Shown in pieces: positions 7,644 to 39,346 of a stretch of 64,000 bases of DNA. Location: NCBI GenBank assembly GCA_021371935.1, contig JAJFVF010000022.1, positions 220,419 to 284,418 on the forward strand. The letters run 5' to 3'. Position 1 is the first letter of the stretch. Each line of letters opens with the position of its first letter. This DNA comes from a bacterium (lineage in GTDB: Bacteria; Armatimonadota; UBA5829). The notes under the pieces were generated by a model. The model saw nothing but the letters and a program-made list of their open reading frames with translations. It had not been told where the DNA came from and did no database searches. The position numbers and the translations under genes are program-made.

Positions 7644-7671
7644 CGAACCATCGAACGATCCAACCATCCGA

Positions 7672-9015
7672 CTATCCAATCCCATCCGAACCAGTCTTTC
7701 GCAGTTTTTCAAGGCGCTGCTTGAACTTTGCCTCATGGCCGTGCTCGGTCGGCTCGTAATACGGCCCACTGCTTGCGCCGGGCGGCAAATATTCTTGATC
7801 GACGTGATGGCCGGGGTAATCGTGCGGATATTTGTATCCCTTACCATGCCCGAGGACCTTTGCACCGGGATAGTGCGAGTCTCGCAGATGAACCGGTACC
7901 GGGGGTCCCTTTCTCTCCATTACGTCTCTGTTTGCGCGATCTATCGCCAGGTAGCTCGCGTTGCTCTTTGGTGCGCAGGCCAGATATACACTCGCCTGAG
8001 CCAGAGGAATCTGAGCCTCCGGCATGCCCACGAACTGCACAGCCTGCGCAGCCGCATTGGCTACAACCAGCGCCATCGGGTCAGCGTTTCCTATATCCTC
8101 CGCTGCGGCTATCACCAGCCGCCTCGCCACAAACTTCGGGTCCTCCCCTGCTGCCAGCATTCGCGCAAGCCAGTATACCGCCGCATCGGGGTCAGAACCG
8201 CGCATGGACTTGATATATGCCGAAACGGTATCGTAGTGGTTATCCCCATTCCTGTCGTATTTCAACACCCTTTTTTGAACAGCTTCTTCAGCAATTTTTA
8301 GTGTGACAGTCTTCAATCCTGTTTTGGAATCGATATCGGTTGACGCGACTGCCGATTCAAGAGCATTTAAGGCATTGCGGGCATCACCATCTGCTATGTC
8401 CACAATATGTGCCAAAGCGTCTTCTTCCACCACAATATTTTCACTGCCGAGGCCGCGCTCAGCATCATGCAAAGCACGGTCGACAAGCAATTGCACATTC
8501 TCATTTGAAAGAGGCTCGAACCTGAATATCCGCGCGCGAGAGAGCAGTGGTGTGTTGACCTCGAAATATGGGTTCTCTGTGGTTGCGCCGATAAGGACGA
8601 CCGTGCCATCCTCAACATGCGGCAGAAGCGCGTCCTGCTGGGCTTTATTAAATCGATGAATCTCATCGACAAAGAGAATCGTCTTTCGACCGTCGAGTTT
8701 GCGCTGCTCCTTTGACCGGGCAATCACTTTGCGCATCTCGGGAATGCCAGAAGTGACGGCGCTGAAGTTTTCAAACCGTGCCCGGCTGTGGTGAGCGATG
8801 ATTGCTGCCAGCGTGCTCTTGCCGCAGCCCGCCGGTCCCCAAAAAATCATGGAGGGCAGCTCATCTTTTTCAATTGACGTGCGGAGGAGAGTCCCGGGAG
8901 CCAGAATCTGCTCCTGGCCGACGAACTCGTCAAGAGTCCTAGGACGCATACGCGCGGCAAGCGGCTGCTGGGATAACTCTTCGGGTGTTTCCGGTAAAAG
9001 ATTGGGCATGTACAT
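7672..9015 (-). CDS. rarA: Replication-associated recombination protein A (RarA/MgsA AAA+ ATPase)
   Basis: Walker [10 protein letters not shown] and Walker [11 protein letters not shown], plus a MgsA C-terminal helical domain. Start chosen at MYMPNLL (9015) with GGGAAG upstream; the longer ORF to 9081 would run through a terminator hairpin. Confidence 0.85.
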
Positions 9016-9052
9016 AGACTTCCCAATTTTGGGTGCGAAATCCTGCACATGC

Positions 9053-9079
9053 GAAAAACGGCCCCGGAAATCCGGGGCC
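9053..9079 (-). terminator. Rho-independent terminator downstream of the C1 peptidase gene
   Basis: GGCCCCGG-ATTT-CCGGGGCC 8-bp GC stem followed by GTTTTTC on the minus strand. Confidence 0.6.
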
Positions 9080-9109
9080 ATAAATCTGCTTCATTTAAGG
9101 ATATCCTTA

Positions 9110-11713
9110 CTATCTAACTGCGCGGCTTCCCATCTGTGACCAGCCATTGTAAACTCCATAGACATCTTTGACATAAAGCCAGCATTTGCATTTCTTGCCG
9201 GACATAGACGGTTTCAGCTCAATGCTCCAATTGATCGCAAGTCCGTTTATATTGTTTTGCACAGTTGTGTTCTTGCAATATAGCTTGCATTGACTGTTCT
9301 CGATAACATAGTTGGAACCCGGCGTATAACCACCAATGTTCCTGCCACCTGTGTCATCTCTCAAATAAAGCCTGTCGGTCTGCACATTATACCAAACATA
9401 AACCGCATTTGACGTCGATTTTCTGTCGTTTATTAGGAGAGCGGCCATGCTGATTGACGAACAGCATGCAATATCAAAATAAACACTGCTGACCGTATAT
9501 ATGGCACCTGGACTGAAAGTGGCGCTCACGGGAATCAGACATACATTCCAAGGCTCGGTAAGCGGACGGAATGTATAATCACCGGCTTCGTCCCATCCTT
9601 TTGAGTTTCCACTGTTGTCCACCGCATAAAGCCATCCATAACAAACCTTATCTGCCATCGAAGGCTTCATTTCAATTACCCAGTTGATGGTGAGTGTGTT
9701 TCCACTCATGGATACGGTAGTATATTTGCAGCAGAGCTTACACTGACTGTTTTCTATAACCTCATCGGAACCGGGAGTATACCCCCCCATACTTATGCTG
9801 CCTGTATCATCTCTCAAGTAGAGTCTGCCTCCATAATAGATGCAATACACGGCATTAGTTCCATTTCTGGCCGTGTTTATCAGGAGTCGGACACTCTTGA
9901 TCGTTGACGCGCCCCCTGTGTCTGAGTGCTTGCTGACAAACGTATATTTCCAGTAACCTCTTAAATAGCCATCCGATGGAGTGAGACTGTCATTCGTAAT
10001 AACACTGCTGATCGTATAGACAGCTGACTTCACCGCACTGGGATTCATCCGACTCTTCCATGCCTTTGCCTTAAGAGTGAGCGAACTAGATACAGTCACC
10101 GATCCTCCAGATGCTATAACAGGGTCGCCGGTGGTAGGGTCATCACCGTCTGTGGTATAGTGAATCTCAGCTCCTGCAGTCGCGCAGGATATCGTAACTG
10201 CTTGAGGATTCGTATAGGTTCCGCCGTCCGGCAAGAAAGTCGGGGTGGAAACAGTTCCCGCTGCTGAAGCTGTATAGGCTTTCAAACAGGCGTTGGCATC
10301 ATAATAATTGAGGTCAAACCAACTATTTCCGTCCAGACTTGTAAAACTCTCATCCGGATTTGAGGTTGCCCTGCTGCTGTAATTTTCTATCGGATATTCT
10401 AAAGCCAGTGGATATGTACATCCCGGTGTTATTGTTTTTACCAACACAGTGAATTTGTGCCCATTCGTCACACTGACAGGCGAATTAAGTTTGATGGTGA
10501 CATAGCCCGGATTGGCAGCTGTTCCGGTCTGCGTCAGCCGCAAAGTGCCACCGGATATTGGACCGCTTGTTGGATCGGTATATACCCTTATCTCATAAGT
10601 CGTTGCCGGTACAACGGCATACCATCCTACCGCACTAATTGATGATGTGGATGTTGCAGTAAACTTGTTGGCAAACCAGACCGTCTCATTGTTATAGCCG
10701 TAATTTCCACACCAACCCAGTGTATCATACTGATATACAGCACTATAGTTGCTCGTAGGCTCAGTACCGACGCCGACCCAGTTTGATATGCCTATCAGTT
10801 TGTCATAGTAAGACACGTAAAAGAAACCATCATCACCCCAAGCGGTTCCCCAACTATTTTTTATTATAAATGCTCCATTGCCGGGCGCCGCAGGCGAAAA
10901 TTTGTTTTTATTGTAGTTGTCATCCCACCCGACAACACAAACCTTATGGTTGCCATTAGTTACGCCTCCCGTATAATAATAGGAATATGTAGCGGCATTG
11001 TATGAATCATCATCCCAATACATCCCAGTCGAAACCGCTCCATAGGTAACAACAGCTTGCTTGATGTCATTATTGTCCAGGGAACCGGTCCTATCAGGAA
11101 TGATGATACCATTCTGAAAGTGCTTCCGCACAGTGAGACCCAAAGGTGATGCACAGCTGTCGGGATTATATGGATCATCACTTTCGTTCACCGGTCCATC
11201 CCAACGCGCAAGGTAAGCCATCGCCTTAAGCTCTTGGCCGCCATCACAGCATCCACCATCAAATCCATTAAGATTTTTCATGTTGTTTTCTGAGAAGTCG
11301 CATTCCTCGCCGGGCATCAACACAGATTCCATTGAGCCCAAACTCGAAAATGTCCAACAACTCCCACATGAACCTTGATCCTCGACTCGTGTAAGCTTTC
11401 CCGTGTCACGCAGATCGTAATATGACGGCAGCGCAGCCTTGAGATCACCAAATATTTTCATTCCTTTAAGGTAAGACAAATCCACCGGCGCTGGGACGAA
11501 GCCCCGCGGAACTTCCTCCTCATTGACGCACATAAACCTGTCCATTCGTCCGGCGACATACTCGACAAATGCCGGATTCAATGGCGCGCGCTGCAAAGTC
11601 GGACCTGCCCCATGAACGCTTGAAACCGCCATGGAAAACATTGTAGTGAAGATGAAAACAAGACAAGTGAAGTACTTACGTGTTGCAGATAATCCCATTA
11701 CCGACGCCCCCAC
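9110..11713 (-). CDS. Secreted papain-family (C1) cysteine peptidase with large C-terminal extension including two tandem ~115-aa repeats
   Basis: Signal peptide; catalytic Cys motif QGSCGSCWTFSS; Asn/Trp region NSWGTAWGDDGFF. The C-terminus holds an Ig/chitobiase-C-like segment and a duplicated Cys-containing module (…LYLRDDTG…GGYTPGS…ENSQCKL…). Confidence 0.75.
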   Translation of the reverse strand: MGASVMGLSATRKYFTCLVFIFTTMFSMAVSSVHGAGPTLQRAPLNPAFVEYVAGRMDRFMCVNEEEVPRGFVPAPVDLSYLKGMKIFGDLKAALPSYYDLRDTGKLTRVEDQGSCGSCWTFSSLGSMESVLMPGEECDFSENNMKNLNGFDGGCCDGGQELKAMAYLARWDGPVNESDDPYNPDSCASPLGLTVRKHFQNGIIIPDRTGSLDNNDIKQAVVTYGAVSTGMYWDDDSYNAATYSYYYTGGVTNGNHKVCVVGWDDNYNKNKFSPAAPGNGAFIIKNSWGTAWGDDGFFYVSYYDKLIGISNWVGVGTEPTSNYSAVYQYDTLGWCGNYGYNNETVWFANKFTATSTSSISAVGWYAVVPATTYEIRVYTDPTSGPISGGTLRLTQTGTAANPGYVTIKLNSPVSVTNGHKFTVLVKTITPGCTYPLALEYPIENYSSRATSNPDESFTSLDGNSWFDLNYYDANACLKAYTASAAGTVSTPTFLPDGGTYTNPQAVTISCATAGAEIHYTTDGDDPTTGDPVIASGGSVTVSSSLTLKAKAWKSRMNPSAVKSAVYTISSVITNDSLTPSDGYLRGYWKYTFVSKHSDTGGASTIKSVRLLINTARNGTNAVYCIYYGGRLYLRDDTGSISMGGYTPGSDEVIENSQCKLCCKYTTVSMSGNTLTINWVIEMKPSMADKVCYGWLYAVDNSGNSKGWDEAGDYTFRPLTEPWNVCLIPVSATFSPGAIYTVSSVYFDIACCSSISMAALLINDRKSTSNAVYVWYNVQTDRLYLRDDTGGRNIGGYTPGSNYVIENSQCKLYCKNTTVQNNINGLAINWSIELKPSMSGKKCKCWLYVKDVYGVYNGWSQMGSRAVR

Positions 11714-11818
11714 CCTTAATTATTACCGCCTACCAAAGCGGCTATCATTTCCTCAGAGTTCCCATTCCGAGCGCCGATAAACCTGCATTATGCACTTTTT
11801 TTAGCCATGCAAGCTACT

Positions 11819-11892
11819 AACCCGGACTATGCGCATACCACATAATCCGGGTCTTTGAGAGCATTATTCACGTTCCTCGTGAATGATGCGGA
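11819..11892 (+). repeat. Double-hairpin intergenic repeat element, copy 1
   Basis: ACCCGGACTATGCG…CATAATCCGGG hairpin, then GTCTTTGAGA, then GCATTATTCACG…CGTGAATGATGC hairpin. About 85% identical to the copies at 14069, 33237 and 40529. Confidence 0.8.
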
Positions 11893-11972
11893 CTAAAGCG
11901 ATCGTTATACAAGTAAAAAACCTGGGGACAGCTATATGCAGACAGTAGCTTTTTTAGTGGCTCAGCAGTACA

Positions 11973-12422
11973 TCAAATTACTTCCAGCTTTTCAAGCATC
12001 TCGACGGCAAACTTATCTGCCTTCGTCTGCTTATAACGGCCGTTGCGTCCTTCGATGTGATCCAGATAGTGGGAGAATTCATGTAGAAAAATTGCGAGTG
12101 TGAGGTCTTCGGCATTATGAAACTGCTCTACACGCAGCTTCTGATATACCTGAGTCCGGCCCAGCCTATCCGTCTTCTCTACATACTCGGAGGTCTTGAA
12201 CTGAATTTTCATAGGATAATGGTTAAATCGATTGATCCTAAGACGTATCAGCCTGCCATGCTCGCGGCTCGGAGTCTTTCGATAATAAGTGCCGGATATA
12301 TAGCGGTTCGATCCTTTTGGGCAGTATTTGAGTTCCACCAGCAGACCATCTGTGGGATAGTCCGTAACCGCTTCCTTGAGAGCTGTGGATATATGCAGGT
12401 GCGTGTTATTAGCGATAATCAT
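11973..12422 (-). CDS. Small HExxH zincin-like protein (SprT/DUF45-like metal-binding motif), function unknown
   Basis: LHEFSHYLDHIEG (HExxH with downstream D/H/E). Overlaps the next gene by 4 nt. Confidence 0.35.
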   Translation of the reverse strand: MIIANNTHLHISTALKEAVTDYPTDGLLVELKYCPKGSNRYISGTYYRKTPSREHGRLIRLRINRFNHYPMKIQFKTSEYVEKTDRLGRTQVYQKLRVEQFHNAEDLTLAIFLHEFSHYLDHIEGRNGRYKQTKADKFAVEMLEKLEVI

Positions 12423-13711
12423 ACAGGCGGGAAACCCCTCCGGCCTGAAGAGTATAGCCTGTTCGTAAGATATGCGCCTATGAACGCCGTTATGAACACG
12501 CCAAAAAATGACCAGAGCATGGTTGGCTCATATTGGAGCTTGATAAATACTCCCGACGACACCTTTATACTGCCTGCACGGACCATCGACCGCCAGGCAA
12601 GTGTGCAGACAAACATGGTGATGCCGAGATATGCGGCATGGATTATCCCAATGCGCAAAGCTGTGGGCAGTGAACCATCCCGTGACCCCCAACGCACCGC
12701 CAAGGCACCCGAGATAAGCCCAATTATGGCCATCAGTCCGGCTCCTATATATGCTATGCTGCCGAATGGTATTACTTTTTCTTCTGCTTTCTTGTTCGCA
12801 GCAAGTTCGTTTTCATCTGAGGTTGTCGTTGCAGTGCGCAGTCGCAAGCCTTTATATAAATTAATTTCGGCTGCAAAGGGGCTCCTATCACCAGACACGA
12901 TTGCTGCGCGCAGCATGGCTCCATTGATAAGGCCATATGCTATGCCTGCGACAGTCGGCTGAAATTTGACTATCGCTCTGCCTGCTGGACCCTCAGGGTT
13001 TTCGGGACCCGTCTTTGAGATAAGCCAGGCCTGTGCGGCAATTGCAATTAAAAGCTGCAAGACAAGCATGATCGGTATTATGGATTTTCCGCAGACCCAC
13101 CAACGACTGACATGATGCCTTCTGTCAACTTTATGGATTGATAAATGACTGCCGATGTATGTGAAGATTACGCTGAACAGACCTGCAGCAAGCAATGTGC
13201 TTTTGAATGTCGGATGTAGAGGGAAACGTGGTGGGTCAAACTCATATCCGCCCGCTGAAGGCAGAGCGCCGGACTTGATCGACGCAGCAAAAAAACTGGA
13301 AAGCGCAGCCAGAACAAGCGCATATAGTATGCCTCCGATCACAGCCGGAGCAATTACACCAAAGCCTGTCGAACCCGCTCTCAGTCTGCCTGCTGCGTAA
13401 CCGGATACAAAAAGCGCCGCAATGGGGATGATTGCCCATGTGATTATCGGCAAGACTACATCAGCCGAAACCTTTGCGCCACCAAGAGTGCCACTGCCTT
13501 TAAGGGATGCATGTTGGATGGCACACAAATTCAGCCCTGCACGGGCAAACGCCGGGCCGCCATAATCCATTACATCGCCCGGAGAAGTGACATTAGCCAC
13601 ACCTGCCCTCAACAGGAAGAAGCATAAACCATAACCTATAGCCAATGCAACCACAGCCCCATATAGGGCCGCAATGATTGGGTTTACGGGTCTACTATCC
13701 ATCAATCTCAC
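12419..13711 (-). CDS. Polytopic integral membrane protein of unknown function (about 10 predicted TM segments)
   Basis: Many hydrophobic helices; no recognisable catalytic motifs. Co-operonic with the HExxH protein. Confidence 0.5.
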   Translation of the reverse strand: MRLMDSRPVNPIIAALYGAVVALAIGYGLCFFLLRAGVANVTSPGDVMDYGGPAFARAGLNLCAIQHASLKGSGTLGGAKVSADVVLPIITWAIIPIAALFVSGYAAGRLRAGSTGFGVIAPAVIGGILYALVLAALSSFFAASIKSGALPSAGGYEFDPPRFPLHPTFKSTLLAAGLFSVIFTYIGSHLSIHKVDRRHHVSRWWVCGKSIIPIMLVLQLLIAIAAQAWLISKTGPENPEGPAGRAIVKFQPTVAGIAYGLINGAMLRAAIVSGDRSPFAAEINLYKGLRLRTATTTSDENELAANKKAEEKVIPFGSIAYIGAGLMAIIGLISGALAVRWGSRDGSLPTALRIGIIHAAYLGITMFVCTLAWRSMVRAGSIKVSSGVFIKLQYEPTMLWSFFGVFITAFIGAYLTNRLYSSGRRGFPPV

Positions 13712-16040: not shown

Positions 16041-17705
16041 TTATACTTCCATCACGACCGGCACAATCATCGGCCTGCGATGGGTCCGCTCATATATGAA
16101 CTTCGCCAGAGCCTTGCGGCAGCCCGCCTTGACATCATCCAGGCCTTCGAGCCCATTGTCCTCTATCAAGTCCTGGAGTGTTGTCAGGAGTACTGACTTT
16201 GCCTCTTCGGTGATCCCGACGCCCAATTCCTCGCCGACAAACCCGCGGGAGAGTATGTCAGGACCAGAGACAATCTCCTTGCGACCATGATCGATGCCGA
16301 TTACTGCTATCAGCACACCGTCCTGCGACAGATGCTTACGGTCGCGAAGGACTACGTCCTCGACATCCCCTACACCAAGGCCGTCGACCATTACAGTCCC
16401 GGCACTTACCTTCTCAGTGACCTCTGCGCTCTCACCATCGGTCTCAAAGACATCACCGGGATACATACGAAACACCCGCTCACTCGAATATCCCAGCCCA
16501 TCCGCCAGGTCAACGAACTTGGCATAATGCCTCTGCTCACCGTGGACGGGTATGATATACTTCGGCTTCAGAAGATTGAGCATCAGGCGAATATCTTCCT
16601 GATTGCCATGGCCGGAGACATGCACATGCGTATAAGGCTCATATATCACATCCGCGCCCTGCCTGAAGAGCCTGTTGATCGTGCGCATAATCAAGTCCTC
16701 ATTGCCGGGAATGGGAGTGGCGCTGATGATGACGGTGTCGCCTTCATCTATTTTGATCTGCTTGTGCTCATCGCTGGCCATGCGAGACAGAGCAGAGAGA
16801 GGCTCACCCTGGCTGCCCGTGGTCACAATAACAGTTTCACTCGGGCTCAGGTCATATAGCTCATTGAGCTGCAATCGTGTATCTTTCGGCACTTTCAGAT
16901 AGCCAAGCTCCTCGGCGATGCGGCAGTTTTCAGCCATACTTCGACCAACTACAGCCACTCGCCTGCCATGATGAGCCGCTATGTTATACACCTGCTGAAT
17001 ACGATGAATATTCGAGGCAAAGGCTGCGATAATTATCCTGCCTTTGGCAGCGGCGAAGATTTTCTCAAATGTATCGCCGACCATGCTCTCGCTCGGTGTG
17101 AAACCAGGCTTTTCTACGTTGGTCGAATCGCACAAAAACGCAAGCACGCCATCTTCGCCGATCTTCGCCAGGCGACTGACATCGGCCAAATGTCCGTCGA
17201 TCGGCGTCTGATCGAATTTGAAATCACTGCTGTGGACAATCGTGCCAACCGGCGTCTTTATCACCAGTCCTGAAGCATCGGGTATGCTGTGGGAAACACG
17301 AACGAACTCAACAGTGAACTCACCCACCTCTATGATATCACCCGAATTGACCTCATAGAGCTGTGCGACATCGTCCAGATGATGCTCACTGAGTTTATTC
17401 ATGACAAATCCCAGCGTCAGAGGAGTCCCCCAGACCGGCACATCCAACCTTCGCAGCACATACGGCAGCGCGCCGATATGATCCTCATGGCCGTGCGTTA
17501 GCACAATGCCCAGGATTTTCTCAGCATTCTCCTCAAGAAAAGTGGTGTCGGGGATTACTATGTCGACACCAAGCATGTCCTCGTCGGGGAACATCAGACC
17601 TGCGTCTACGATCAGTATCCGGTCGTTATATTGATAGGCGGTCATGTTCTTGCCTATCTCCATGACACCGCCAAGTGGGATTATCTGCAACTTCTGTGAA
17701 TCCAT
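16041..17705 (-). CDS. rnj: Ribonuclease J (metallo-beta-lactamase/beta-CASP)
   Basis: HGHEDHIGALPYV motif, beta-CASP region, length 554 aa and N-terminus MDSQKLQIIPLGGVMEIGKNM typical of RNase J. Confidence 0.9.
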   Translation of the reverse strand: MDSQKLQIIPLGGVMEIGKNMTAYQYNDRILIVDAGLMFPDEDMLGVDIVIPDTTFLEENAEKILGIVLTHGHEDHIGALPYVLRRLDVPVWGTPLTLGFVMNKLSEHHLDDVAQLYEVNSGDIIEVGEFTVEFVRVSHSIPDASGLVIKTPVGTIVHSSDFKFDQTPIDGHLADVSRLAKIGEDGVLAFLCDSTNVEKPGFTPSESMVGDTFEKIFAAAKGRIIIAAFASNIHRIQQVYNIAAHHGRRVAVVGRSMAENCRIAEELGYLKVPKDTRLQLNELYDLSPSETVIVTTGSQGEPLSALSRMASDEHKQIKIDEGDTVIISATPIPGNEDLIMRTINRLFRQGADVIYEPYTHVHVSGHGNQEDIRLMLNLLKPKYIIPVHGEQRHYAKFVDLADGLGYSSERVFRMYPGDVFETDGESAEVTEKVSAGTVMVDGLGVGDVEDVVLRDRKHLSQDGVLIAVIGIDHGRKEIVSGPDILSRGFVGEELGVGITEEAKSVLLTTLQDLIEDNGLEGLDDVKAGCRKALAKFIYERTHRRPMIVPVVMEV

Positions 17706-21431: not shown

Positions 21432-23654
21432 TTACTGCTTCTTGGTTCGGAACCTCGCTCCAGGACCGTCACCGCCCTCACGAGGTCGGTCGCGGTACCC
21501 ACCGCGATCAATGTGCGGTCTACTGCCTCCGCGCCCACCGCGAGACTCGGGCGGCGGTGGAACATAGCCTTCGTCACCCTCGATCAGACCACGACGTGTC
21601 AAACGAATCTTGCCGTCCGGACTAATCTCTATTACCTTGACCAGCAGTTCATCACCTAGCTTGCAGACATCCTCAGTCCGCTCGACGCGCTCCTTGGCAA
21701 GCTGAGATATATGAACCAGACCATCTTTGCCGGGAATCAACTCCACAAATGCGCCAAATGGTTCGATGCGAGTAACTTTTCCCGTATAAATCTGGCCTAC
21801 CTCGACCTCTTTGGTGATGTCCTCAACTATCTTTTTGGCCCGCTCACCACCGACTGCGTCGACCGAAGTTATGTAGACATGACCGTCCTGCTCGATATCG
21901 AGCTTCGCACCGGTCTCGGCTTCTATCTTCTTGATTACCTTGCCGCCAGGACCGATTATGTCGCCTATCTTGTCGGGGTGAATCTCCACGACAAAGACCC
22001 TCGGCGCATATTCGCTCATGGTCTCCCTGGCCTCGGGAATAGCCTCAGCTATCACATCAAGGATATTCATTCTTGCTGCCTTGGCCTTTTCCAGAGCGCC
22101 GACAACTACATCGCGATCCAGACCGTCTATCTTGGTGTCGACCTGGATGGCAGTGATGCCATCGCGTGTGCCCGCTACCTTGAAGTCCATATCGCCATGG
22201 AAGTCTTCAAGCCCCTGGATATCGGTCAACAATACTCTCTTGTCCTCACCGGTAATCAGACCGATGGATATGCCGGCGACCGGCGCCTTGAGATTGACGC
22301 CTGCATCAAGCAGAGCTAGAGTACATCCGCAAGTACTGGCCATGGATGTCGAGCCGTTCGATTCCAATACTTCCGAAGTCATCAACATCGCATATGGAAA
22401 ATCTTCCTGCGCAGGGATCATAGGCCTCAAGGCCTTTTCGGCAAGCGCTCCATGACCCACCTCACGCCTGCCTGCGCTCCTCAACGGGCTGACCTCGCCG
22501 ACACTGTAAGGAGGGAAATTGTAGAAGTGCATAAAGCGCTTCTCGCCGTCCTCTTCGAGATTATCGATAATCTGAGCATCATCAAGCGAACCGAGCGTGA
22601 GAGTGGTAAGCACCTGGGTCTGACCTCTGGTGAAGAGACCTGAACCATGCACACGCGGGAGCAGTCCTACTTCTGCGAACAGCGGCCTTATGTCATCCAG
22701 CCCTCTGCCACCGGCGCGAGCACCCTCATCAAGGATCATCTTGCGGACTTGTTTCTTGATGACTTTATATACGACCTCGCCAATCTCGGCATCACGGTCG
22801 GGATATTCTTCAGCGAGTTCATCCTTGAGATGAGCCTCAAGATCAAAAATTGCCTTCTCTTTGCCCGCATTGGCCGGGTCTTTGATGAAATCGGCTATCT
22901 TTGGAGCGATTTTCGCTGATATTTCTTCGTAGAGCTGAGGGTCAGGAGTAAGGATGGGGACTTCAGCCTTGGGCTTGCCCACTTTTTCTACCAACTCGCT
23001 CTGCAAAGCAACAAGCTTCGCTATTGCCTCATGGGCAAAGTCAAGCGCCTCCGCCAACACGTCCTCTTGAACTTCGCTGGCTTCAAGCTCGATCTCCATA
23101 ACTTTGCCGTCCATCCCGGCGACCACAAGCTCCATATCGGCTTCTTTGATCTGCTCCAGGGAAGGGTTTAAGACAAACTCACCGCCGATCCGGCAGACTC
23201 TGACGCAGCCGATCGGACCGCCCCAGGGTATATCTGAGACAGCTATGGCAGCGGATGCAGCCACTACCGCAAGAACATCGGCTGGAGCGTCCGGCTCCAT
23301 TGAAAGAGGCATCGCGATAACCTGAACATCGTTTCGCATGCCATCGGCAAAGAGCGGCCTTATCGGCCTGTCGATTAAGCGAGAGGTGAGGACAGCTTTC
23401 TCTGAGGGACGCCCGCCCCTCTTCACAAAACCACCGGGAATCTTGCCTACGGCGTATTTTCTCTCTTCATAATCGCAAATAAGAGGGAAGAAGTTCATTC
23501 CTTCCCTCGGTTTGGCACTCATTGTCGCCGTGGCCATAACTACCGTTTCGCCACAGCTCAGCAATACTGCGCCGTTAGCCTGGTTTGCTATGCGCCCTGT
23601 CTCCAGAGCTATAGTCTTGCCACCAAGCTCGATCTCCACTTTGTTAATTGTCAT
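21432..23654 (-). CDS. pnp: Polynucleotide phosphorylase with C-terminal RGG-rich tail
   Basis: Two RNase PH domains, KH and S1 domains; 740 aa. Tail …RGGRGGSRPHIDRGGYRDRPREGG…. Confidence 0.95.
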   Translation of the reverse strand: MTINKVEIELGGKTIALETGRIANQANGAVLLSCGETVVMATATMSAKPREGMNFFPLICDYEERKYAVGKIPGGFVKRGGRPSEKAVLTSRLIDRPIRPLFADGMRNDVQVIAMPLSMEPDAPADVLAVVAASAAIAVSDIPWGGPIGCVRVCRIGGEFVLNPSLEQIKEADMELVVAGMDGKVMEIELEASEVQEDVLAEALDFAHEAIAKLVALQSELVEKVGKPKAEVPILTPDPQLYEEISAKIAPKIADFIKDPANAGKEKAIFDLEAHLKDELAEEYPDRDAEIGEVVYKVIKKQVRKMILDEGARAGGRGLDDIRPLFAEVGLLPRVHGSGLFTRGQTQVLTTLTLGSLDDAQIIDNLEEDGEKRFMHFYNFPPYSVGEVSPLRSAGRREVGHGALAEKALRPMIPAQEDFPYAMLMTSEVLESNGSTSMASTCGCTLALLDAGVNLKAPVAGISIGLITGEDKRVLLTDIQGLEDFHGDMDFKVAGTRDGITAIQVDTKIDGLDRDVVVGALEKAKAARMNILDVIAEAIPEARETMSEYAPRVFVVEIHPDKIGDIIGPGGKVIKKIEAETGAKLDIEQDGHVYITSVDAVGGERAKKIVEDITKEVEVGQIYTGKVTRIEPFGAFVELIPGKDGLVHISQLAKERVERTEDVCKLGDELLVKVIEISPDGKIRLTRRGLIEGDEGYVPPPPESRGGRGGSRPHIDRGGYRDRPREGGDGPGARFRTKKQ

Positions 23655-33604: not shown

Positions 33605-34210
33605 ATGAGAGCAGCACAGATGCGACCGGCAAAAGCCGTCACCACACAGGACGGACAGTTGATAGGCAGCTTCAAACGGGGGCAGGCCGAGGCCTTTGAC
33701 CGTTTGATGGAGGCGCACACCGACAAGGTGTTTGCGCTGGCATGGTCGGTCCTGATGAATGCTGATGATGCCATGGATGCGGTCCAGGAGGTCTTCATTA
33801 AGCTGTATAAAGCACTGCCATCGATGTCCGAATCCGATAATTTGAACGCGTGGCTCTATCGGGTCTGCCTTAATCACTGCATCGACCGCAAACGCAGAGC
33901 TAAAAACTCGAGGACAGAATTTACTGACGATGACTGGGAGCATCTGCAAGGCAACTTGGCCGATGAGCCTGAATATCGTATGTATCAGAGTGAAGTGGGG
34001 CGGGTAATACGCGCCGCGGTGGACAAGCTGCCCGAGCGCCAGAGAATGGTATTCATTCTCAGGCACTACAGACTTCTTTCTATAAATGAGATCGCGCAGG
34101 CACTAGGATGCACCACCGGCGCGGTCAAGGCGCATCTTTCGCGCGCAACCGCTCGTTTGCGCGACCGGCTTGCAGGGACAATTGTCTTTGAAGCCGGGGA
34201 GGTGAAATAA
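33605..34210 (+). CDS. ECF-subfamily RNA polymerase sigma factor
   Basis: Sigma70_r2 (…VQEVFIKLYKA…WLYRVCLNHCIDRKR) and r4 (…LSINEIAQALGCTTGAVKAHLSRA). An alternative start lies at 33620. Confidence 0.85.
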   Translation: MRAAQMRPAKAVTTQDGQLIGSFKRGQAEAFDRLMEAHTDKVFALAWSVLMNADDAMDAVQEVFIKLYKALPSMSESDNLNAWLYRVCLNHCIDRKRRAKNSRTEFTDDDWEHLQGNLADEPEYRMYQSEVGRVIRAAVDKLPERQRMVFILRHYRLLSINEIAQALGCTTGAVKAHLSRATARLRDRLAGTIVFEAGEVK

Positions 34211-34211
34211 A

Positions 34212-34931
34212 ATGAATTGCAGACAGGTCCGTAAACTTATGGGAGCATATCTGTATGGAGACCTGGAACCGGAAGATATGCGCGATATCAGGCTGCATGC
34301 GCAGGTATGTGATAAATGCCGTGCCGACCTGGAAAGCCGCGGGCAGGTCATCTCATCGCTGAGCGCTCAAGCGCCGGTTCTGCAAGATCACGACAAGCAG
34401 CGGATCGCTCGGAATGTGAAAGAAGCAATAACCGGGTTGGATCACGAAGATATCAGACTGAACCGCACGAATGAGCCGGACACAGGCCTATGGTGGCTGC
34501 GACCGGCATCGGCTGTCGCTATAGCAGGTTTTCTGCTGGCAGGTTTTGCAATAGGCAGGCACATCGGCGGTGGGCTTTCTGCAGGCTCCAGGCAGTCAAC
34601 CGACATCAGCAAAGCAAGGGTAACAATCACCGAGGCAGCCCCAGACAACTCATCTGATAATGCAACAGAAGCCAGCACCGATACGCACCAAAGCAACTCA
34701 CGCTCGAAAAAGATAGAAAATATGGCCGATTATGCTCGAAGGATGGCAATACCCGCAGTCACCGGCCCGACAGACAGAAACAGCAATCAAGATAAGCGCA
34801 GGCACGTAATACATGAGGAGCCGCTGAGTGTGGCAGGACAATCGGACATAAAGGGAGAACAGGACAATAAAGACACGACAAAACTGCCAAAACCCACAGG
34901 TCTTAATGATGCGCAGACAGCCAATGAATAA
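34212..34931 (+). CDS. Anti-sigma factor with N-terminal zf-HC2-like motif and single TM helix
   Basis: HAQVCDKCRADL Cys/His cluster, TM segment AVAIAGFLLAGFAIG. Lies immediately after the ECF sigma with a 1-nt gap. Confidence 0.6.
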   Translation: MNCRQVRKLMGAYLYGDLEPEDMRDIRLHAQVCDKCRADLESRGQVISSLSAQAPVLQDHDKQRIARNVKEAITGLDHEDIRLNRTNEPDTGLWWLRPASAVAIAGFLLAGFAIGRHIGGGLSAGSRQSTDISKARVTITEAAPDNSSDNATEASTDTHQSNSRSKKIENMADYARRMAIPAVTGPTDRNSNQDKRRHVIHEEPLSVAGQSDIKGEQDNKDTTKLPKPTGLNDAQTANE

Positions 34932-35982
34932 TCACATTTACATAAGAGTATTCTTTATCGCTATAGTCGTCTTTATTTCAGCAGTAACAATATCAGGTGC
35001 ATTCGCGCAGACACGCGCATCAGTTACGGTGAGCGCCGTGACCGAGGATAGCTACTCGCCGGTCGTTTTGATTATAGACGGCAAGCTGGTGGAAGTGGAA
35101 TCGCTCCAATTTATGCGCGGCCAGCAGGTGATGATCTGGCTGCGCGATCTGGAAAACCTCGGCTGGGGCAAAGCATATTCAGACAAGTCCGGCGAGATCA
35201 TATTCAAGGGTAACGGAGTCACTCTCTCATTTACCAAGAATGGCGGGCTGGCCAAAGTCAACTCGCTGTCTGTAAAGCTGCCGGTCGATACATACACCCG
35301 AGACGGAAAACTGATGGTCCCACTCTCGTTTACGGCAAAAGCGCTCGGATATGACTGTGAGATTGCCTACAAACCGGTGGCTGCCATAAAAACGTATTCC
35401 CGCCCCGCAACCACGCCGGAGTCTAATTCACTGGAAGGCAGAGTCATATATGCGGGCAAAGGCGCGGCGGGAATCAAAGTGCGGGCAGTTGATAGGGATT
35501 TTAATGTCGTAGGCGACACCGTCACCGATGCGAACGGCACCTACAGGTTCGACAACCTCCCTGCAGGTGAATACGCGGCGTTCGTCTATACCAAAGACAA
35601 CCCCACCTATTTCAATCGTGTCTCAGAAGCAGCGGTCCTCAACAAAGGGGACGAAGCTCACCTCAAACCCATATCACTTGGACGTATTCTCGCGCCAAAA
35701 TCCCCAAAACCAGGTGGAATGGCAAAAAACTCAAGCGGCAATGTGCTGCTGGAGTGGACCAAGTGCGAAGCAGCAGTATCATACGAACTGACAATTGCAA
35801 GAAAAAACAGTGAGCCGAGCCTGGCATTCACTTCAAAAGAACCGAAAGCACGTATACCCGCCAATAAATTGAAGCATGGCGAAATGTATGAAGCACAGGT
35901 ATCCGCGCTCGATGCCAATGGAGACTATGTCGGCGGCACGGTGGGCGCAGGCGGCGAGCCATGGTCGTTTGTATTTGAGTAA
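34906..35982 (+). CDS. Secreted protein with copper-amine-oxidase-N-terminal-like and carboxypeptidase-regulatory-like (CarbopepD_reg) domains
   Basis: Signal peptide; GRVIYAGKGAAGIKVRAV…TDANGTYRFDNLPAGEY. Overlaps the anti-sigma stop, making it the third gene of the ECF module. Confidence 0.4.
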   Translation: MMRRQPMNNHIYIRVFFIAIVVFISAVTISGAFAQTRASVTVSAVTEDSYSPVVLIIDGKLVEVESLQFMRGQQVMIWLRDLENLGWGKAYSDKSGEIIFKGNGVTLSFTKNGGLAKVNSLSVKLPVDTYTRDGKLMVPLSFTAKALGYDCEIAYKPVAAIKTYSRPATTPESNSLEGRVIYAGKGAAGIKVRAVDRDFNVVGDTVTDANGTYRFDNLPAGEYAAFVYTKDNPTYFNRVSEAAVLNKGDEAHLKPISLGRILAPKSPKPGGMAKNSSGNVLLEWTKCEAAVSYELTIARKNSEPSLAFTSKEPKARIPANKLKHGEMYEAQVSALDANGDYVGGTVGAGGEPWSFVFE

Positions 35983-36019
35983 ATTCGCATTTTGACACGT
36001 TTTCTGCGATAATGTACGC

Positions 36020-39000
36020 ATGCTGGAATCTATTATTTCATCAATGATCCCTGTCGTCGGCGCAGACGGCAGTTCCCGCAGACCTCGGCGTTCCCGCCGG
36101 CAGCGGCCACCCCATGAAGATATGGGCAACTGGATATGGATACAAAGCGCCGAGACCACTCGTAATTATTATCTCTACGCGCGCAAAACATTCGACCTAC
36201 CCGCAAAGCCCAGCCGAGCAATCATCAAAACATCTGCAGACAGCCGTTATAAGCTCTATGTGAACGGCGAATACGTCGGCAAGGGACCCGTGCGAAGCGC
36301 AGCGGGCATCAGTTATTACGACACGTATGATATCACAGGAGTGCTTTCCAAAGGCAAAAATGTCATCGCGTTCCATGTCATGCATTTCGGTGAGAACACG
36401 TCAATGTGCGCGCTTCGCAGACCAGGCCTGATCTGTAAAGCGGAAATAGAGCTAAATGACCAAAAGCTGGAAATAGAAACCGATCAGGCATGGAAAGTGC
36501 ATCGCGCATCCGATTGGACCGGCCAGAGCGCTCGCATCAATAACAACCTCGGTTTCCAGGAAGTCTATGACAGCGCGGAGCGTATGGACGGTTGGAATGA
36601 GATCAAGTTTAAAGAAAAAGGCTGGGAAGAGGCCTGCATAGTGGGCACAGCGCCTGCAATGCCATGGGGCAAACTCATTGAGCGCGCTATTCCACAGCTC
36701 GATGAAGAGAAAATCCTGCCCGCTTCAATAGTCGGATTATATAACTCGCCTGAGCACAGTAAGGAGACCGCTGCGCAGACGGTGCCTGAGATCATGGCGG
36801 CATCCGAGCTTGTCGATCTCAACGCCGGCAGCGTCAAGCATGCTGAAGCACTGCTGACAGAGACCGGAAGCTGCCAGGTCAAGACTCCCCGCGGCGATGG
36901 AGGAGTCGTGATTATACTCGATTTCGGTCGAGAAGTGTTCGGCAATGTAGAGATAGGCATCGGCGGCTCGGGCAGCGGAACTATGGATATCGGCTATAGT
37001 GAACTGCTCGAAGACGGCCATGTGAAACCCACTCGCGGCGATATGAAATACACCGACCGCGTGGTCCTCAAAAAGGGAAAACTTAACTGGCAGAGCTTCG
37101 AGCCGCGCGCATTCAGGTATATGCAGATCGAGTTTCATGCGTGCTCCAAGGCGGTCGCGCTGGAACATATCAGAGTCAACCAGACCACCTACCCCACCGA
37201 GCTTATCGGCAGTTTCGAGTGCAGTGACCCGCTCCTAAACGACATCTGGAAGACCTGCGCATACACTGCAAAACTGTGCATGGAAGACACGTTCATCGAC
37301 TCGCCATGGCAGAGCAGATCGCAGTGGTGGGCGGACGCCAGAATCGAATCGCGAACGGCATATTATGCATTCGACGACGTCAAGCTGCTGGCTCAGGGTC
37401 TCAGGCAGATTGCCGATACTCAGGATCGCAGCGGCGCGGTCATGGGCACATATCCCGCATCGGAGGATAAACTGGTCCCGGACTTTGCGCTTAATTGGGT
37501 CTTTTCGATCCTTGATTACTATGCATTCTCGGATGATTCGGGTTTGGTGCGCGATCTGTATCCCAACGTGCGCAGGCTGATGAGTTGGTTCGATCGATAT
37601 CAGAACGATTTTGGACTAATCGGCGAAGTGCCCGGATGGATATTCATCGACTCGGCTGATCTGGAACGGCATGGTGTGCTGACATCCCTCAACTGCCTGT
37701 ACTATCAAGCTCTGAGGGTGACGGCTGCCCTTGCATCAATTTTGGGAAAAGGCAATGAAGCGGATGACTATAACGAGTCCGCCCGAGTGCTCAGACTTGC
37801 GATCAACAAATATCTCTACTCGCCCGAGAAAGGGCTGTATGCGGACTGCCTGAAAGACGGCAAACTGGCGGACAAATTCAGCGCTCAGACAAACATACTC
37901 GCCGCGCTCTTCGATATCCCCGACCATTATTGCAAGGCCGCTATCATACGCACTCTGCAGGGCAACATGCTCTCTGAAACCAGGACACCGTATTTCACAT
38001 CGCACTTGCTCGAAGTGCTATACTCGATGGATCGCCATAAAGAGGCTCTCGATATGATGCGCCGGAAGTGGGGAAGGAGCGTAGAGCAAGGCGGTGGAAC
38101 GTTCCCTGAGTTCTTCGGTGATAACGGCAGCAAGTGTCATGGCTGGGCATCGGGTCCAGCGCGCGATCTCATCGCCGAATATGTCGGGATAAAGCCCATA
38201 CTGGGCATGCATCGATTTTCTGTCACCCCGCATGAAGGCGACCTTGAATGGGCAAAAGGGTCCATTGCAACCCGGACCGGGCTGTTGACCATCGAATGGC
38301 GTTCCACACCCAGGTCGTTCACTATAGAAGCGCGGGTTCCAGACGGTCTGAAAGTTGACATATACCCACCCTGCCCTATGAACACAAAGATAACGCTCGA
38401 CGGCAAGGCGCATCCGTCATGCCTGGTTACCATTGGCGGCGGCAATCACACCATAAAAGTGACATCGGCCAGGCTTCCAAAGCCAAAACCGCTGGGCAAA
38501 CTGCCGAAACCTGTCCCGATACCGATCGTGGAACTGCTCGATGATCTGTCGGTGCAAGATCGCAAAAATCTCGGATTGATAACCAGCCGCCATGAAAGAA
38601 ACGGCTCCAGGCGGTCACGCCTGAAGACTTCCCGCAAGTCGAAAATCGAAGAGGCGCCAATCGAAATACTCCCTACTCCTGAACTGGAAACACTGGTCGA
38701 AGAGACGGAGATGATACCGGAAATCGCCGCATCGGCAACTGAAACCGCTCCCGAGGCCGAGACAAAGCCCCAGAAGAGACGGTCCCGCCGTGGTGGACGC
38801 GGCAGGAACAAGCCTGCACCGCAAGAGACGGCCGTCGCTCAAGTGCCTGAGGAAAAAGTCGAAGTTGAAGCTGTAATCAGCAATGAGCCGCTTGAAACGG
38901 CAGATGAGCCGAAAAAGACGAGCAGGAAGCGTTCACATCGCGGAGGCAGACGAAGGTCTTCCAAGTCATCACAAGAGGCACAAACGCCTGCTGATGTGCC

Positions 39001-39346
39001 GACAGAGATCGAACCCGCCGCTGAGTCTCCATTGTCGGTTGAAGACGCATCGCCTGAGCTGGTTACTGAAGCAGCAGTCGAAGCAGCACCCAAACCCGCC
39101 AGAAAACGCACTCATCGGGGTGGAAGAAAACGCTCTACATCCAAAAAGTCTTTGGAAGAAGCTGCCGAGAGCAGCCCAATAGAGCCGGTCGTCGAAGCCA
39201 CACCTGAACCTGCTCCAGAGGCTGCAGCCCAGGAAGCACCTAAGAAAAAACGGCGCACATACACCAGGCGACCAAGGAAAAAACCAACTGAAAACACTGA
39301 GCAGGCTGACAGTTCTAAAACCATGCAGGATCAGCCTGCCGAGTAG
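36020..39346 (+). CDS. GH78 (alpha-L-rhamnosidase)-like six-hairpin glycosidase fused to a ~270-aa acidic/arginine-rich C-terminal tail with three R-x-HRGGR-like repeats
   Basis: N-terminal YARKTFDLPAKPSRAIIKTSADSRYKLYVNGEYVGKGP (Bac_rhamnosid_N pattern); FECSDPLLNDIW…FIDSPWQSRSQWWAD catalytic-domain pattern. Tail motifs RRSRRGGRGRNK, RKRSHRGGRRRSSK, RKRTHRGGRKRSTSKK, KKKRRTYTRRPRKK. The true start may be Met-35 (36122). Confidence 0.5.
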   Translation: MLESIISSMIPVVGADGSSRRPRRSRRQRPPHEDMGNWIWIQSAETTRNYYLYARKTFDLPAKPSRAIIKTSADSRYKLYVNGEYVGKGPVRSAAGISYYDTYDITGVLSKGKNVIAFHVMHFGENTSMCALRRPGLICKAEIELNDQKLEIETDQAWKVHRASDWTGQSARINNNLGFQEVYDSAERMDGWNEIKFKEKGWEEACIVGTAPAMPWGKLIERAIPQLDEEKILPASIVGLYNSPEHSKETAAQTVPEIMAASELVDLNAGSVKHAEALLTETGSCQVKTPRGDGGVVIILDFGREVFGNVEIGIGGSGSGTMDIGYSELLEDGHVKPTRGDMKYTDRVVLKKGKLNWQSFEPRAFRYMQIEFHACSKAVALEHIRVNQTTYPTELIGSFECSDPLLNDIWKTCAYTAKLCMEDTFIDSPWQSRSQWWADARIESRTAYYAFDDVKLLAQGLRQIADTQDRSGAVMGTYPASEDKLVPDFALNWVFSILDYYAFSDDSGLVRDLYPNVRRLMSWFDRYQNDFGLIGEVPGWIFIDSADLERHGVLTSLNCLYYQALRVTAALASILGKGNEADDYNESARVLRLAINKYLYSPEKGLYADCLKDGKLADKFSAQTNILAALFDIPDHYCKAAIIRTLQGNMLSETRTPYFTSHLLEVLYSMDRHKEALDMMRRKWGRSVEQGGGTFPEFFGDNGSKCHGWASGPARDLIAEYVGIKPILGMHRFSVTPHEGDLEWAKGSIATRTGLLTIEWRSTPRSFTIEARVPDGLKVDIYPPCPMNTKITLDGKAHPSCLVTIGGGNHTIKVTSARLPKPKPLGKLPKPVPIPIVELLDDLSVQDRKNLGLITSRHERNGSRRSRLKTSRKSKIEEAPIEILPTPELETLVEETEMIPEIAASATETAPEAETKPQKRRSRRGGRGRNKPAPQETAVAQVPEEKVEVEAVISNEPLETADEPKKTSRKRSHRGGRRRSSKSSQEAQTPADVPTEIEPAAESPLSVEDASPELVTEAAVEAAPKPARKRTHRGGRKRSTSKKSLEEAAESSPIEPVVEATPEPAPEAAAQEAPKKKRRTYTRRPRKKPTENTEQADSSKTMQDQPAE

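Follow-up and report, generated by a model that had tools for sequence, protein, structure and literature searches.

At positions 36020 to 39346 of a 64,000-nucleotide stretch of DNA from a bacterium of the phylum Armatimonadota (contig JAJFVF010000022.1; the whole stretch is referred to here as the window), an ATG-started open reading frame (ORF) on the forward strand encodes a protein of 1108 amino acids that combines three parts: a 35-residue leader, a core belonging to glycoside hydrolase family 78 (GH78) and a tail of ~275 residues, in which acidic spacers alternate with arginine-rich boxes. The features of this gene and its flanks are as follows:

35984–36013, + strand: promoter-like TTCGCA-18-(TG)cGATAAT, found by consensus scan and alone not above chance
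36020–36124, + strand: N-terminal leader (residues 1–35), composed of the hydrophobic MLESIISSMIPVVGADG (36020–36070) and then the basic box SRRPRRSRRQRPP (36074–36112)
36125–38515, + strand: GH78 (alpha-L-rhamnosidase family) core, residues 36–832, assigned from Pfam, PDB, AlphaFold2 (AF2), Foldseek and the substitution ratio given below
37292–37342, + strand: degenerate catalytic motif FIDSPWQSRSQWWADAR, for which the clade consensus is DCPWRERAQWWGDAR, placed by alignment to solved structures
38099–38116, + strand: TFPEFF motif with Glu697, the equivalent of RhaB Glu841, which is kept
38516–38644, + strand: proximal tail with the conserved motif PIPIVELLDDLS (residues 833–844) and the first basic block RKNLGLITSRHERNGSRRSRLKTSRKSK (residues 848–875)
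38645–38764, + strand: acidic spacer 1 (residues 876–915), which in the alignment holds a conserved LPxPExxxxVxExEIIPE
38765–38812, + strand: basic box 1, KPQKRRSRRGGRGRNK (residues 916–931), followed by a conserved ETAxAQVPEE
38912–38965, + strand: basic box 2, KKTSRKRSHRGGRRRSSK (residues 965–982)
39092–39148, + strand: basic box 3, KPARKRTHRGGRKRSTSKK (residues 1025–1043)
39239–39283, + strand: C-box PKKKRRTYTRRPRKK (residues 1074–1088), the most conserved motif of the tail
39284–39346, + strand: short acidic/polar C-terminal end (residues 1089–1108) and stop codon
39351–39388, no strand assigned: 16-nt inverted repeat (ATTAATGGGGCGCTAC / GTTGCGCCCCAATTAT) in the gap that separates GH78 from the convergent methyltransferase gene

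The original prediction, made from the letters of the window, had taken the first ~830 residues for a six-hairpin glycosidase of the GH78 type, and Pfam, comparison with 2OKX and Foldseek all agree with this assignment. The Pfam models Bac_rhamnosid_N and Bac_rhamnosid match the core above their cut-offs, Bac_rhamnosid6H matches at 9.2e-38 and Bac_rhamnosid_C lies marginally under its cut-off (21.5 vs 22.1 bits); amongst PDB sequences, 2OKX was matched at 4e-99 and 3CIH at 4e-40. The AF2 model exhibits predicted local distance difference test (pLDDT) values >90 throughout the core, which is laid out as N-terminal beta-sandwich domains, an (alpha/alpha)6 domain and a C-terminal beta-sandwich, and the best 11 matches of this model to the PDB in Foldseek are all GH78 rhamnosidases: by its (alpha/alpha)6 fold and the flanking beta-sandwich domains the protein is a member of GH78. 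Its multi-domain fold and domain order are those of RhaB from Bacillus sp. GL1 (2OKX; Foldseek E=7.5e-56, TM-score 0.71 as normalised to the target). RhaB, the nearest solved relative, is described as an intracellular enzyme, and inspection by eye, with no predictor used, revealed no Sec, Tat or lipoprotein signal in the window protein; the cytoplasmic location assigned earlier is thus in line with a GH78 core that carries no export signal, with the leader judged by inspection only. The solved GH78 structures and the tail-less homologues stop at ~830–1030 residues and exhibit neither a disordered tail nor an Arg-rich leader.

The composition of the tail is strongly biased (E 15%, R 10.6%, K 8.4%, A 11.4% and P 9.9%, also rich in S and T, with F, W and C absent), with a charged fraction of 0.37 and a net charge per residue of +0.01. 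The blockiness of these charges lies above that of all 1000 shuffled versions (z=6.6), there is no Pfam or NCBIfam match within the tail, and pLDDT values below 50 over residues 855–1108, preceded by a weak short helix at 845–850 (pLDDT 53–64), point to disorder: the tail is predicted to be a disordered segment of alternating positive and negative charge blocks. Every motif quoted in the original prediction is present, both the RGGR-type boxes, three in number, and KKKRRTYTRRPRKK near the end. The spacers between the boxes comprise 32–43 residues in the window copy, RGGR-type boxes were found nowhere else in the 64-kb window in any frame, and the DNA pattern of the C-box matches once in the window, with 0 matches expected by chance. 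Tandem Repeats Finder (TRF) detected no tandem repeat in the window copy of the tail DNA, and hence the three boxes are diverged units.

An ORF of this kind could in principle be an artefact of annotation or assembly, in which a frameshift, a fusion or a chance reading frame has been appended to a normal GH78 protein of ~830 residues. Such errors do occur in the GH78 gene: in the orthologue of a long-read metagenome-assembled genome (MAG; L009, 9980–13302) the core is truncated at ~693 residues and the tail lies in another frame (ORF 11422–13302, four boxes), probably owing to a sequencing frameshift, which accounts for the 692-residue protein P0078. Even this split locus still has its tail, however, and the fused protein is encoded by ~90 independent assemblies. 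At the local base composition, a run of 273 codons without a stop would arise with a probability of 3.5e-5, and at that of the window with one of 3.5e-6, so that the earlier view of the tail as an uninterrupted ORF unlikely to arise by chance holds, and its ratio of nonsynonymous to synonymous substitution rates (dN/dS) is well under 1. The terminator-like hairpin formed by the inverted repeat directly after the stop codon probably acts as a bidirectional terminator that marks the true end of the gene. An artefactual origin is thus effectively excluded.

The tail is widely shared by the orthologues, which speaks against a fusion specific to one assembly. Amongst the 95 nearest homologues, which extend to ~38% identity, most comprise 950–1270 residues and carry tails of 100–440 residues with like composition and 0–6 boxes, whilst homologues at 38% identity or less are mostly ~830 residues long and tail-less, with a few Armatimonadota at 37–39% still tailed. 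In a neighbour-joining tree of the core, 89 tailed sequences fall into one clade of 95 leaves, the six other leaves of which are truncated gene calls or bear short basic tails, and the 25 tail-less sequences are all placed outside this clade, a distribution consistent with a single gain of the tail. Amongst reference genomes, each locus at 42% identity or more belongs to a MAG labelled Armatimonadota/Armatimonadetes or just 'bacterium'. Against the 76%-identical orthologue of locus L001, dN/dS is lowest in the core (0.084) and highest in the leader (0.34), with the tail as a whole at 0.17, its boxes at 0.13 and its spacers at 0.20, all of these being approximate values with dS at 1.0–1.8 and thus near saturation. 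Judged from these comparisons, the tail is translated, conserved and under purifying selection.

Alignment of 90 tails reveals a common layout. The proximal motif P-I/H-x-V-E-L/V-L-D/E-E is found in 52 of them and is followed by a basic stretch (RRSLGLTxSRR) and then by an acidic segment with the consensus LPAPExDATVGExEIIPE; at least one basic box (consensus K-RRRR-S-R-R-G-G-R-G-R) is present in 77, with acidic E/P/A/T spacers between boxes of median length 43 residues (interquartile range 41–48). The C-box, [ED]-x-x-P-K-K-K-R-R-T-Y-T-R-R-P-R-K, occurs in 36 of the 90 tails at a median distance of 19 residues from the C-terminus and is followed by a short acidic end; R-Y-RR is invariant across its alignment. 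In close relatives the boxes are positionally orthologous. True tandem DNA repeats are found in the tails of two orthologues (L012 12619–13109, 180 nt x 2.7 copies, 82% identity; L005 3433–3937, 159 nt x 3.2 copies, 80% identity), from which it follows that the tail grows by duplication of a spacer-plus-box unit, and these repeats indicate that the unit is still duplicating in some lineages. In the most distant tailed members (L010, L013, L014 and L017) the tails begin with a helical-looking ELEREAAERAKEE segment and the boxes are without GG (e.g. KRKRHRRRGRRSKSS), which suggests that the RGG (Arg-Gly-Gly) core is not essential to the design of the tail.

Such variability, with tail length and box number (0–6) differing widely, together with a net charge near zero and a high charged fraction, is what would be expected if the tail were a generic solubility or spacing element (an 'entropic bristle') or an autoregulatory segment contacting the core electrostatically, in either case with no specific external ligand. 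We consider this quite unlikely: boxes and short motifs that keep their positions (C-box, PIPxVELLDE, AQVPAEP), as well as the regular spacing of 41–48 residues, point to specific interactions, and the boxes are more constrained than the spacers that separate them.

The leader provides a second appendage. A homologous segment of ~36 residues, ~MLxSlISlLPavVGADGg-RRSRRGGRSRR…ED-GKWIW, is found in most tailed orthologues, its box being of the same kind as those of the tail, and no leader-like N-terminus was found on proteins other than GH78 in 17 related loci. The public gene model of NCBI (P0001, 1074 residues) begins at M35 (nt 36122) and omits the leader. No Shine-Dalgarno sequence precedes the ATG at 36020, and the -10 hexamer of the extended -10 element (TGcGATAAT) ends only 6 nt before it; the same TTTCTGnGATAAT stands 5–9 nt upstream of the ATG in the orthologues of L001, L006, L009, L015, L016 and L028, whilst a plain TATAAT precedes the ATG in L003. 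This arrangement points to a conserved leaderless mRNA. The conserved leader and the conserved extended -10 element together support 36020 as the true start, 34 codons before that of P0001, and the Arg-rich N-terminus noted earlier on the premise of this start is thereby substantiated.

The leader does not resemble a Sec or Tat signal by inspection: there is no basic n-region, the hydrophobic stretch is at most 12 residues long and broken by Ser, Pro and Gly, and ~8 Arg residues follow directly. A further role for it could be in a membrane tether, with the hydrophobic leader and the polybasic boxes binding anionic phospholipids and so holding the enzyme to the cytoplasmic side of the membrane, e.g. 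beside sugar importers, after the manner of polybasic and amphipathic membrane-targeting sequences. Residues 1–13 are hydrophobic to amphipathic (mean Kyte-Doolittle value 1.2–2.0, helical moment ~1.5) and are succeeded by the Arg cluster, the protein exhibits several polybasic patches, and RNase E, too, has both a membrane-targeting helix and Arg-rich segments. This explanation is unlikely to our minds, however, since AF2 predicts no confident helix in the leader (pLDDT <50 for residues 1–25), the hydrophobic stretch of merely ~9–12 residues includes Ser, Pro and Gly, the leader is absent in some tailed orthologues (e.g. P0041, P0057 and P0072) and anionic membranes would repel the long acidic spacers.

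In the catalytic motif D-x-P-x-R-[DE]-R-x-x-W-x-G-D the clade consensus reads R-E-R, whilst the window protein reads Gln431-Ser432-Arg433: both it and its closest relative (76% identical) carry DSPWQSRSQWWADAR, with Gln431 in place of Arg and Ser432 in place of Glu. The register was checked against four solved GH78 enzymes (RhaB Glu572, BT1001 Asp, KoRha Asp, DtRha Glu); RhaB exhibits Tyr571-Glu572 at the positions of Gln431-Ser432, where most GH78 enzymes exhibit Arg and then Glu or Asp. The acid carboxylate at the position of RhaB Glu572 is thus absent from the window protein, whilst Asp427, Asp439 and Glu697, corresponding to RhaB Asp567, Asp579 and Glu841, are kept and supply the second carboxylate and the substrate-binding Asp. 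As summarised in a citing paper (PMC3663046), Cui et al. proposed RhaB Glu572, with Asp567 or Glu841, as key residues. Because the catalytic Arg-Glu pair is replaced by Gln-Ser in the window protein and its closest relative, the window copy is probably impaired as a canonical rhamnosidase, despite strong constraint on the core. Of the earlier description as a glycosidase, the GH78 fold stands, whilst the loss of the catalytic acid in the window copy had escaped notice.

The same catalytic position is Asp in P0003–P0008 and Asn in P0009, and it has been lost independently in several further tailed lineages (P0021, P0035, P0062, P0068 and P0075). At least one of the four active-site positions named above is lost in 33 of 89 tailed homologues vs 5 of 29 tail-less ones (Fisher p=0.066, with sequences that are not independent), which is a trend only and not significant. 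As most tailed homologues remain catalytically intact and the excess of losses is not significant, the tail is not tied to loss of enzymatic function.

We next consider which other proteins carry such tails. In the window and ~335 kb from 17 tail-bearing loci, surveyed by motif because a scan on composition alone, for charged blocks poor in hydrophobic residues, was overwhelmed by out-of-frame Arg-rich ORFs from GC-rich MAGs, multi-box tails, C-boxes and the leader are confined to the GH78 orthologue. Tails of like composition on unrelated secreted proteins, which would have marked a generic cell-surface linker, are thus not found in the ~0.34 Mb examined. A profile of the tail alone was then used for an exhaustive search of 1.84 billion (1.84e9) representative proteins at E<=1e-3, which returned only 43 matches because HMMER heavily penalises the composition of the tail; two of these are GH78 representatives. 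Pfam models matched amongst the other 41 are RNase_E_G_Thio (thioredoxin-like; 15), the RNase_E_G catalytic domain (11), TRAM (4) and S1 (4), together with single cases of PSP1, NYN + OST-HTH, HARE-HTH + Mrr and Card1, with counts given per model, so that one protein may count twice. The remaining matches are without a domain and many are short fragments, and amongst the matches carrying a Pfam domain no additional glycosidase or other metabolic enzyme was recognised. The likeness to RNase E tails drawn in the original prediction is thus upheld as regards architecture, as the tail profile recovers mainly the tails of RNase E/G and other RNA enzymes, although for the RNase E/G tails, matched at E=1e-8 to 1e-3, homology and convergence are indistinguishable in such low-complexity sequence.

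Eight of the matches (P0133, P0136, P0143, P0150, P0153, P0156, P0157 and P0158) end in RRGWW[RQ]R; others end in (E)YVPMSEW(I/G)(D/E)DF (P0138, P0142, P0146, P0149, P0152 and P0159). The likeness is most detailed for P0162, an RNase E/G of 871 residues (Pfam RNase_E_G 2e-94; L082 3478–6093, also L084 13112–15076) whose gene stands after radical-SAM and DUF2344 genes: in its tail, KTKRRRHRGGRGRGK occurs twice as a box and a third box reads RRRHRSHRKK, the spacers are rich in E/P/A/T, and a terminal PRRRYYRPRKKK stands 13 residues before the end, and hhalign aligns it to the GH78 tail profile with the three boxes in register (probability 97.9%, E=4e-13, in low-complexity sequence). A word-indexed protein search with the tail alone was uninformative, as none of its 4488 candidates scored and even the identical protein went unscored, probably through filtering for composition bias. 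Searches with smaller elements or in other data were negative: the C-box DNA pattern gave 0 matches in metagenome contigs, the tail alignment gave 600 pattern matches in metagenome contigs with 0 confirmed by tblastn, presumably through low-complexity masking, and a C-box profile gave 665 candidates with none scoring at E<=10, so that C-box-like ends in other families are read from the exhaustive tail-profile search.

The RNase E scaffold (AR1/AR2 in E. coli, the domain forming bacterial ribonucleoprotein bodies, BR-bodies, in Caulobacter) exhibits an alternating acidic and Arg-rich disordered tail, as does the GH78 protein, and both have a basic/aromatic short motif near the C-terminus, reading RRTYTRR in the GH78 tail and RRGWWRR in Caulobacter RNase E; the scaffold sits on a ribonuclease, however, whereas the GH78 tail sits on a glycosidase fold. 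In Caulobacter, the EKPRRGWWRR motif of RNase E docks PNPase, the arginine-rich charge blocks of its disordered domain drive BR-body condensation together with RNA, and aconitase is a metabolic enzyme recruited to the RNA degradosome (PMC10412687). The window GH78 protein has no RNase_E_G domain according to Pfam and differs in this from an RNase E-type scaffold, and no RNase E/G gene was found in the window or the related loci that were fetched. In E. coli, enolase is likewise recruited to the RNA degradosome. Enolase and aconitase, as metabolic-enzyme folds tied to RNA-decay assemblies, offer a precedent for GH78, although they are clients bound by short RNase E motifs, whilst the GH78 fold itself bears a scaffold-like tail.

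The boxes also recall the RGG/RG boxes of eukaryotic type and the RGG tails of DEAD-box helicases and PNPase, which likewise exhibit Arg-Gly-Gly cores in disordered basic segments. In the GH78 boxes, however, a single RGG lies within a poly-Arg/Lys run (RRSRRGGRGR), whilst RGG/RG proteins exhibit clustered RGG repeats. The di-/tri-RGG definition of Thandapani et al. (2013) reportedly demands at least two RGG or three RG within gaps of 0–4 residues; each GH78 box holds one RGG, and the weaker di-RG pattern is attained in box 1 (RGGRGR) alone. A likeness to the tail of the window's own PNPase had also been claimed. This protein (gene 21432–23654) does carry an RGG tail, in that its Gly/Arg-rich C-terminus (21438–21584, - strand) reads IEGDEGYVPPPPESRGGRGGSRPHIDRGGYRDRPREGGDGPGARFRTKK and ends in ESRGGRGGSRPHIDRGGYRDRPREGG, but the style is a different one: the PNPase tail is short and Gly-rich with clustered RGG and lacks acidic spacers, unlike that of GH78.

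From these observations we favour, with moderate confidence, the reading that the tail is a multivalent element for binding RNA or other polyanions on a cytoplasmic and probably catalytically impaired GH78 protein. A GH78 protein of one Armatimonadota clade would have acquired, once, two disordered appendages, the 35-residue leader and a blocky polyampholyte tail of ~275 residues, the latter assembled from duplicating units of ~55–60 residues, each made up of an acidic E/P/A/T spacer and then an Arg-rich box, and terminating in a conserved basic/aromatic short motif (PKKKRRTYTRRPRK). The Arg boxes would act as multivalent polyanion-binding sites, with RNA the most likely ligand, the acidic spacers would keep the tail soluble and permit block-to-block interactions, and the tail would thereby tether or partition the GH78 protein; by analogy with the docking of PNPase by RRGWWRR of Caulobacter RNase E, the C-box may dock a partner protein.

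Several points weigh against this interpretation. Arg boxes would bind DNA, polyphosphate, anionic lipids and acidic glycans as well as RNA; the biased composition inflates or distorts the statistics of both hhalign and hmmsearch, and the match to RNase E tails may reflect convergent composition and not common function or ancestry; no RNA-metabolism gene is consistently linked to GH78; and the catalytic site is intact in 56 of the 89 tailed homologues.

A bolder version, which we regard as speculative and rather improbable, sees an RNase E-style kit transplanted onto a glycosidase fold: a membrane-targeting-like leader, multivalent Arg-rich RNA-binding blocks and a terminal docking motif, through which the protein would belong, as a scaffold or as an obligate client, to a ribonucleoprotein body or an assembly akin to a degradosome. 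A partner such as PNPase would then be docked by the C-box, whilst the sugar pocket would be a sensor or dispensable, which, if true, would account for the repeated erosion of the catalytic site whilst the core stays constrained. The near-identical tail of P0162 would in that event imply that P0162 and the GH78 protein are addressed to the same assembly.

The genomic setting is that of an ordinary chromosomal region. Directly upstream on the same strand (33605–35982) lie genes for an extracytoplasmic function (ECF) sigma factor, a zf-HC2 anti-sigma factor and a Cu_amine_oxidN1/CarboxypepD_reg protein; the anti-sigma factor has its own Ser/Thr/Asp/Asn/Lys-rich low-complexity region (34599–34883), its ORF overlaps that of the Cu_amine_oxidN1/CarboxypepD_reg protein by 26 nt, and the stop of the latter ends 37 nt before the GH78 start. 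Downstream follow a convergent methyltransferase, an M16 peptidase and a histidine kinase, and RNase J (16041–17705) and PNPase are encoded 12–20 kb upstream of GH78. Genes for rhamnose catabolism, microcompartments, encapsulins or RNA helicases were not found amongst the annotated ORFs of the window. A role as microcompartment or encapsulin cargo was considered and rejected, with no bacterial microcompartment (BMC) or encapsulin domains in the window ORFs and a leader that is found only on GH78 orthologues in the 17 loci. Elsewhere in the window (9110–11713, - strand), a protein of 867 residues exhibits an unusual architecture of papain-family Peptidase_C1, Lectin_like and CHB_HEX_C_1/Fn3_assoc, which is unrelated to the GH78 finding.

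Synteny around GH78 is kept only with the 76%-identical relative, where L001 holds an additional secreted GH20 of 946 residues (7104–9944) between the Cu_amine_oxidN1 and GH78 genes that is absent from the window. In L003, L006, L009, L015 and L018 a convergent block recurs ~0–8 kb downstream of GH78, encoding TPR, LytR_cpsA_psr + LytR_C, cytidylyltransferase-like and aldehyde-dehydrogenase-family proteins, which has the look of a housekeeping cluster rather than of an operon with GH78. That each of these five loci encodes LytR-CpsA-Psr, a family of cell-wall polymer ligases, on the opposite strand within a few kb downstream could be taken to favour substrate targeting, in which the boxes replace a carbohydrate-binding module and direct the enzyme to polyanionic rhamnose glycans (pectic, gellan-like, ulvan-like or of the cell wall) outside the cytoplasm; clusters of basic residues do bind acidic polysaccharides in other systems. 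We judge this very unlikely: inspection reveals no export signal and the Arg cluster after a short hydrophobic stretch disfavours export, RhaB is intracellular as noted above, the truly secreted GH20 adjoining GH78 in L001 bears a classical signal peptide but is tail-less, the downstream block is convergent and housekeeping-like, and the catalytic acid is absent from the window copy.

Glycoside hydrolases usually bear carbohydrate-binding or anchoring modules and not disordered tails of the nucleic-acid type, and we know of no other glycoside-hydrolase family with an RNase E-like tail. Literature searches gave no account of GH78 proteins with tails of this kind, nor any of rhamnosidases from Armatimonadota. 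Whilst the GH78 fold and the charge-block tail are each known, their combination and the repeated erosion of the active site within the tailed clade are new. For the annotation of these genomes, this means that the public gene model P0001 starts 34 codons late and that metabolic predictions for such MAGs based on carbohydrate-active enzymes score the gene as a rhamnosidase, when some copies, including that of the window, are probably without canonical activity. More broadly, in a phylum nearly devoid of experimental cell biology, the GH78 proteins of Armatimonadota provide a naturally occurring case in which to test how ordinary bacterial enzymes are directed to RNA-rich or polyanionic compartments by disordered tails of charge blocks.

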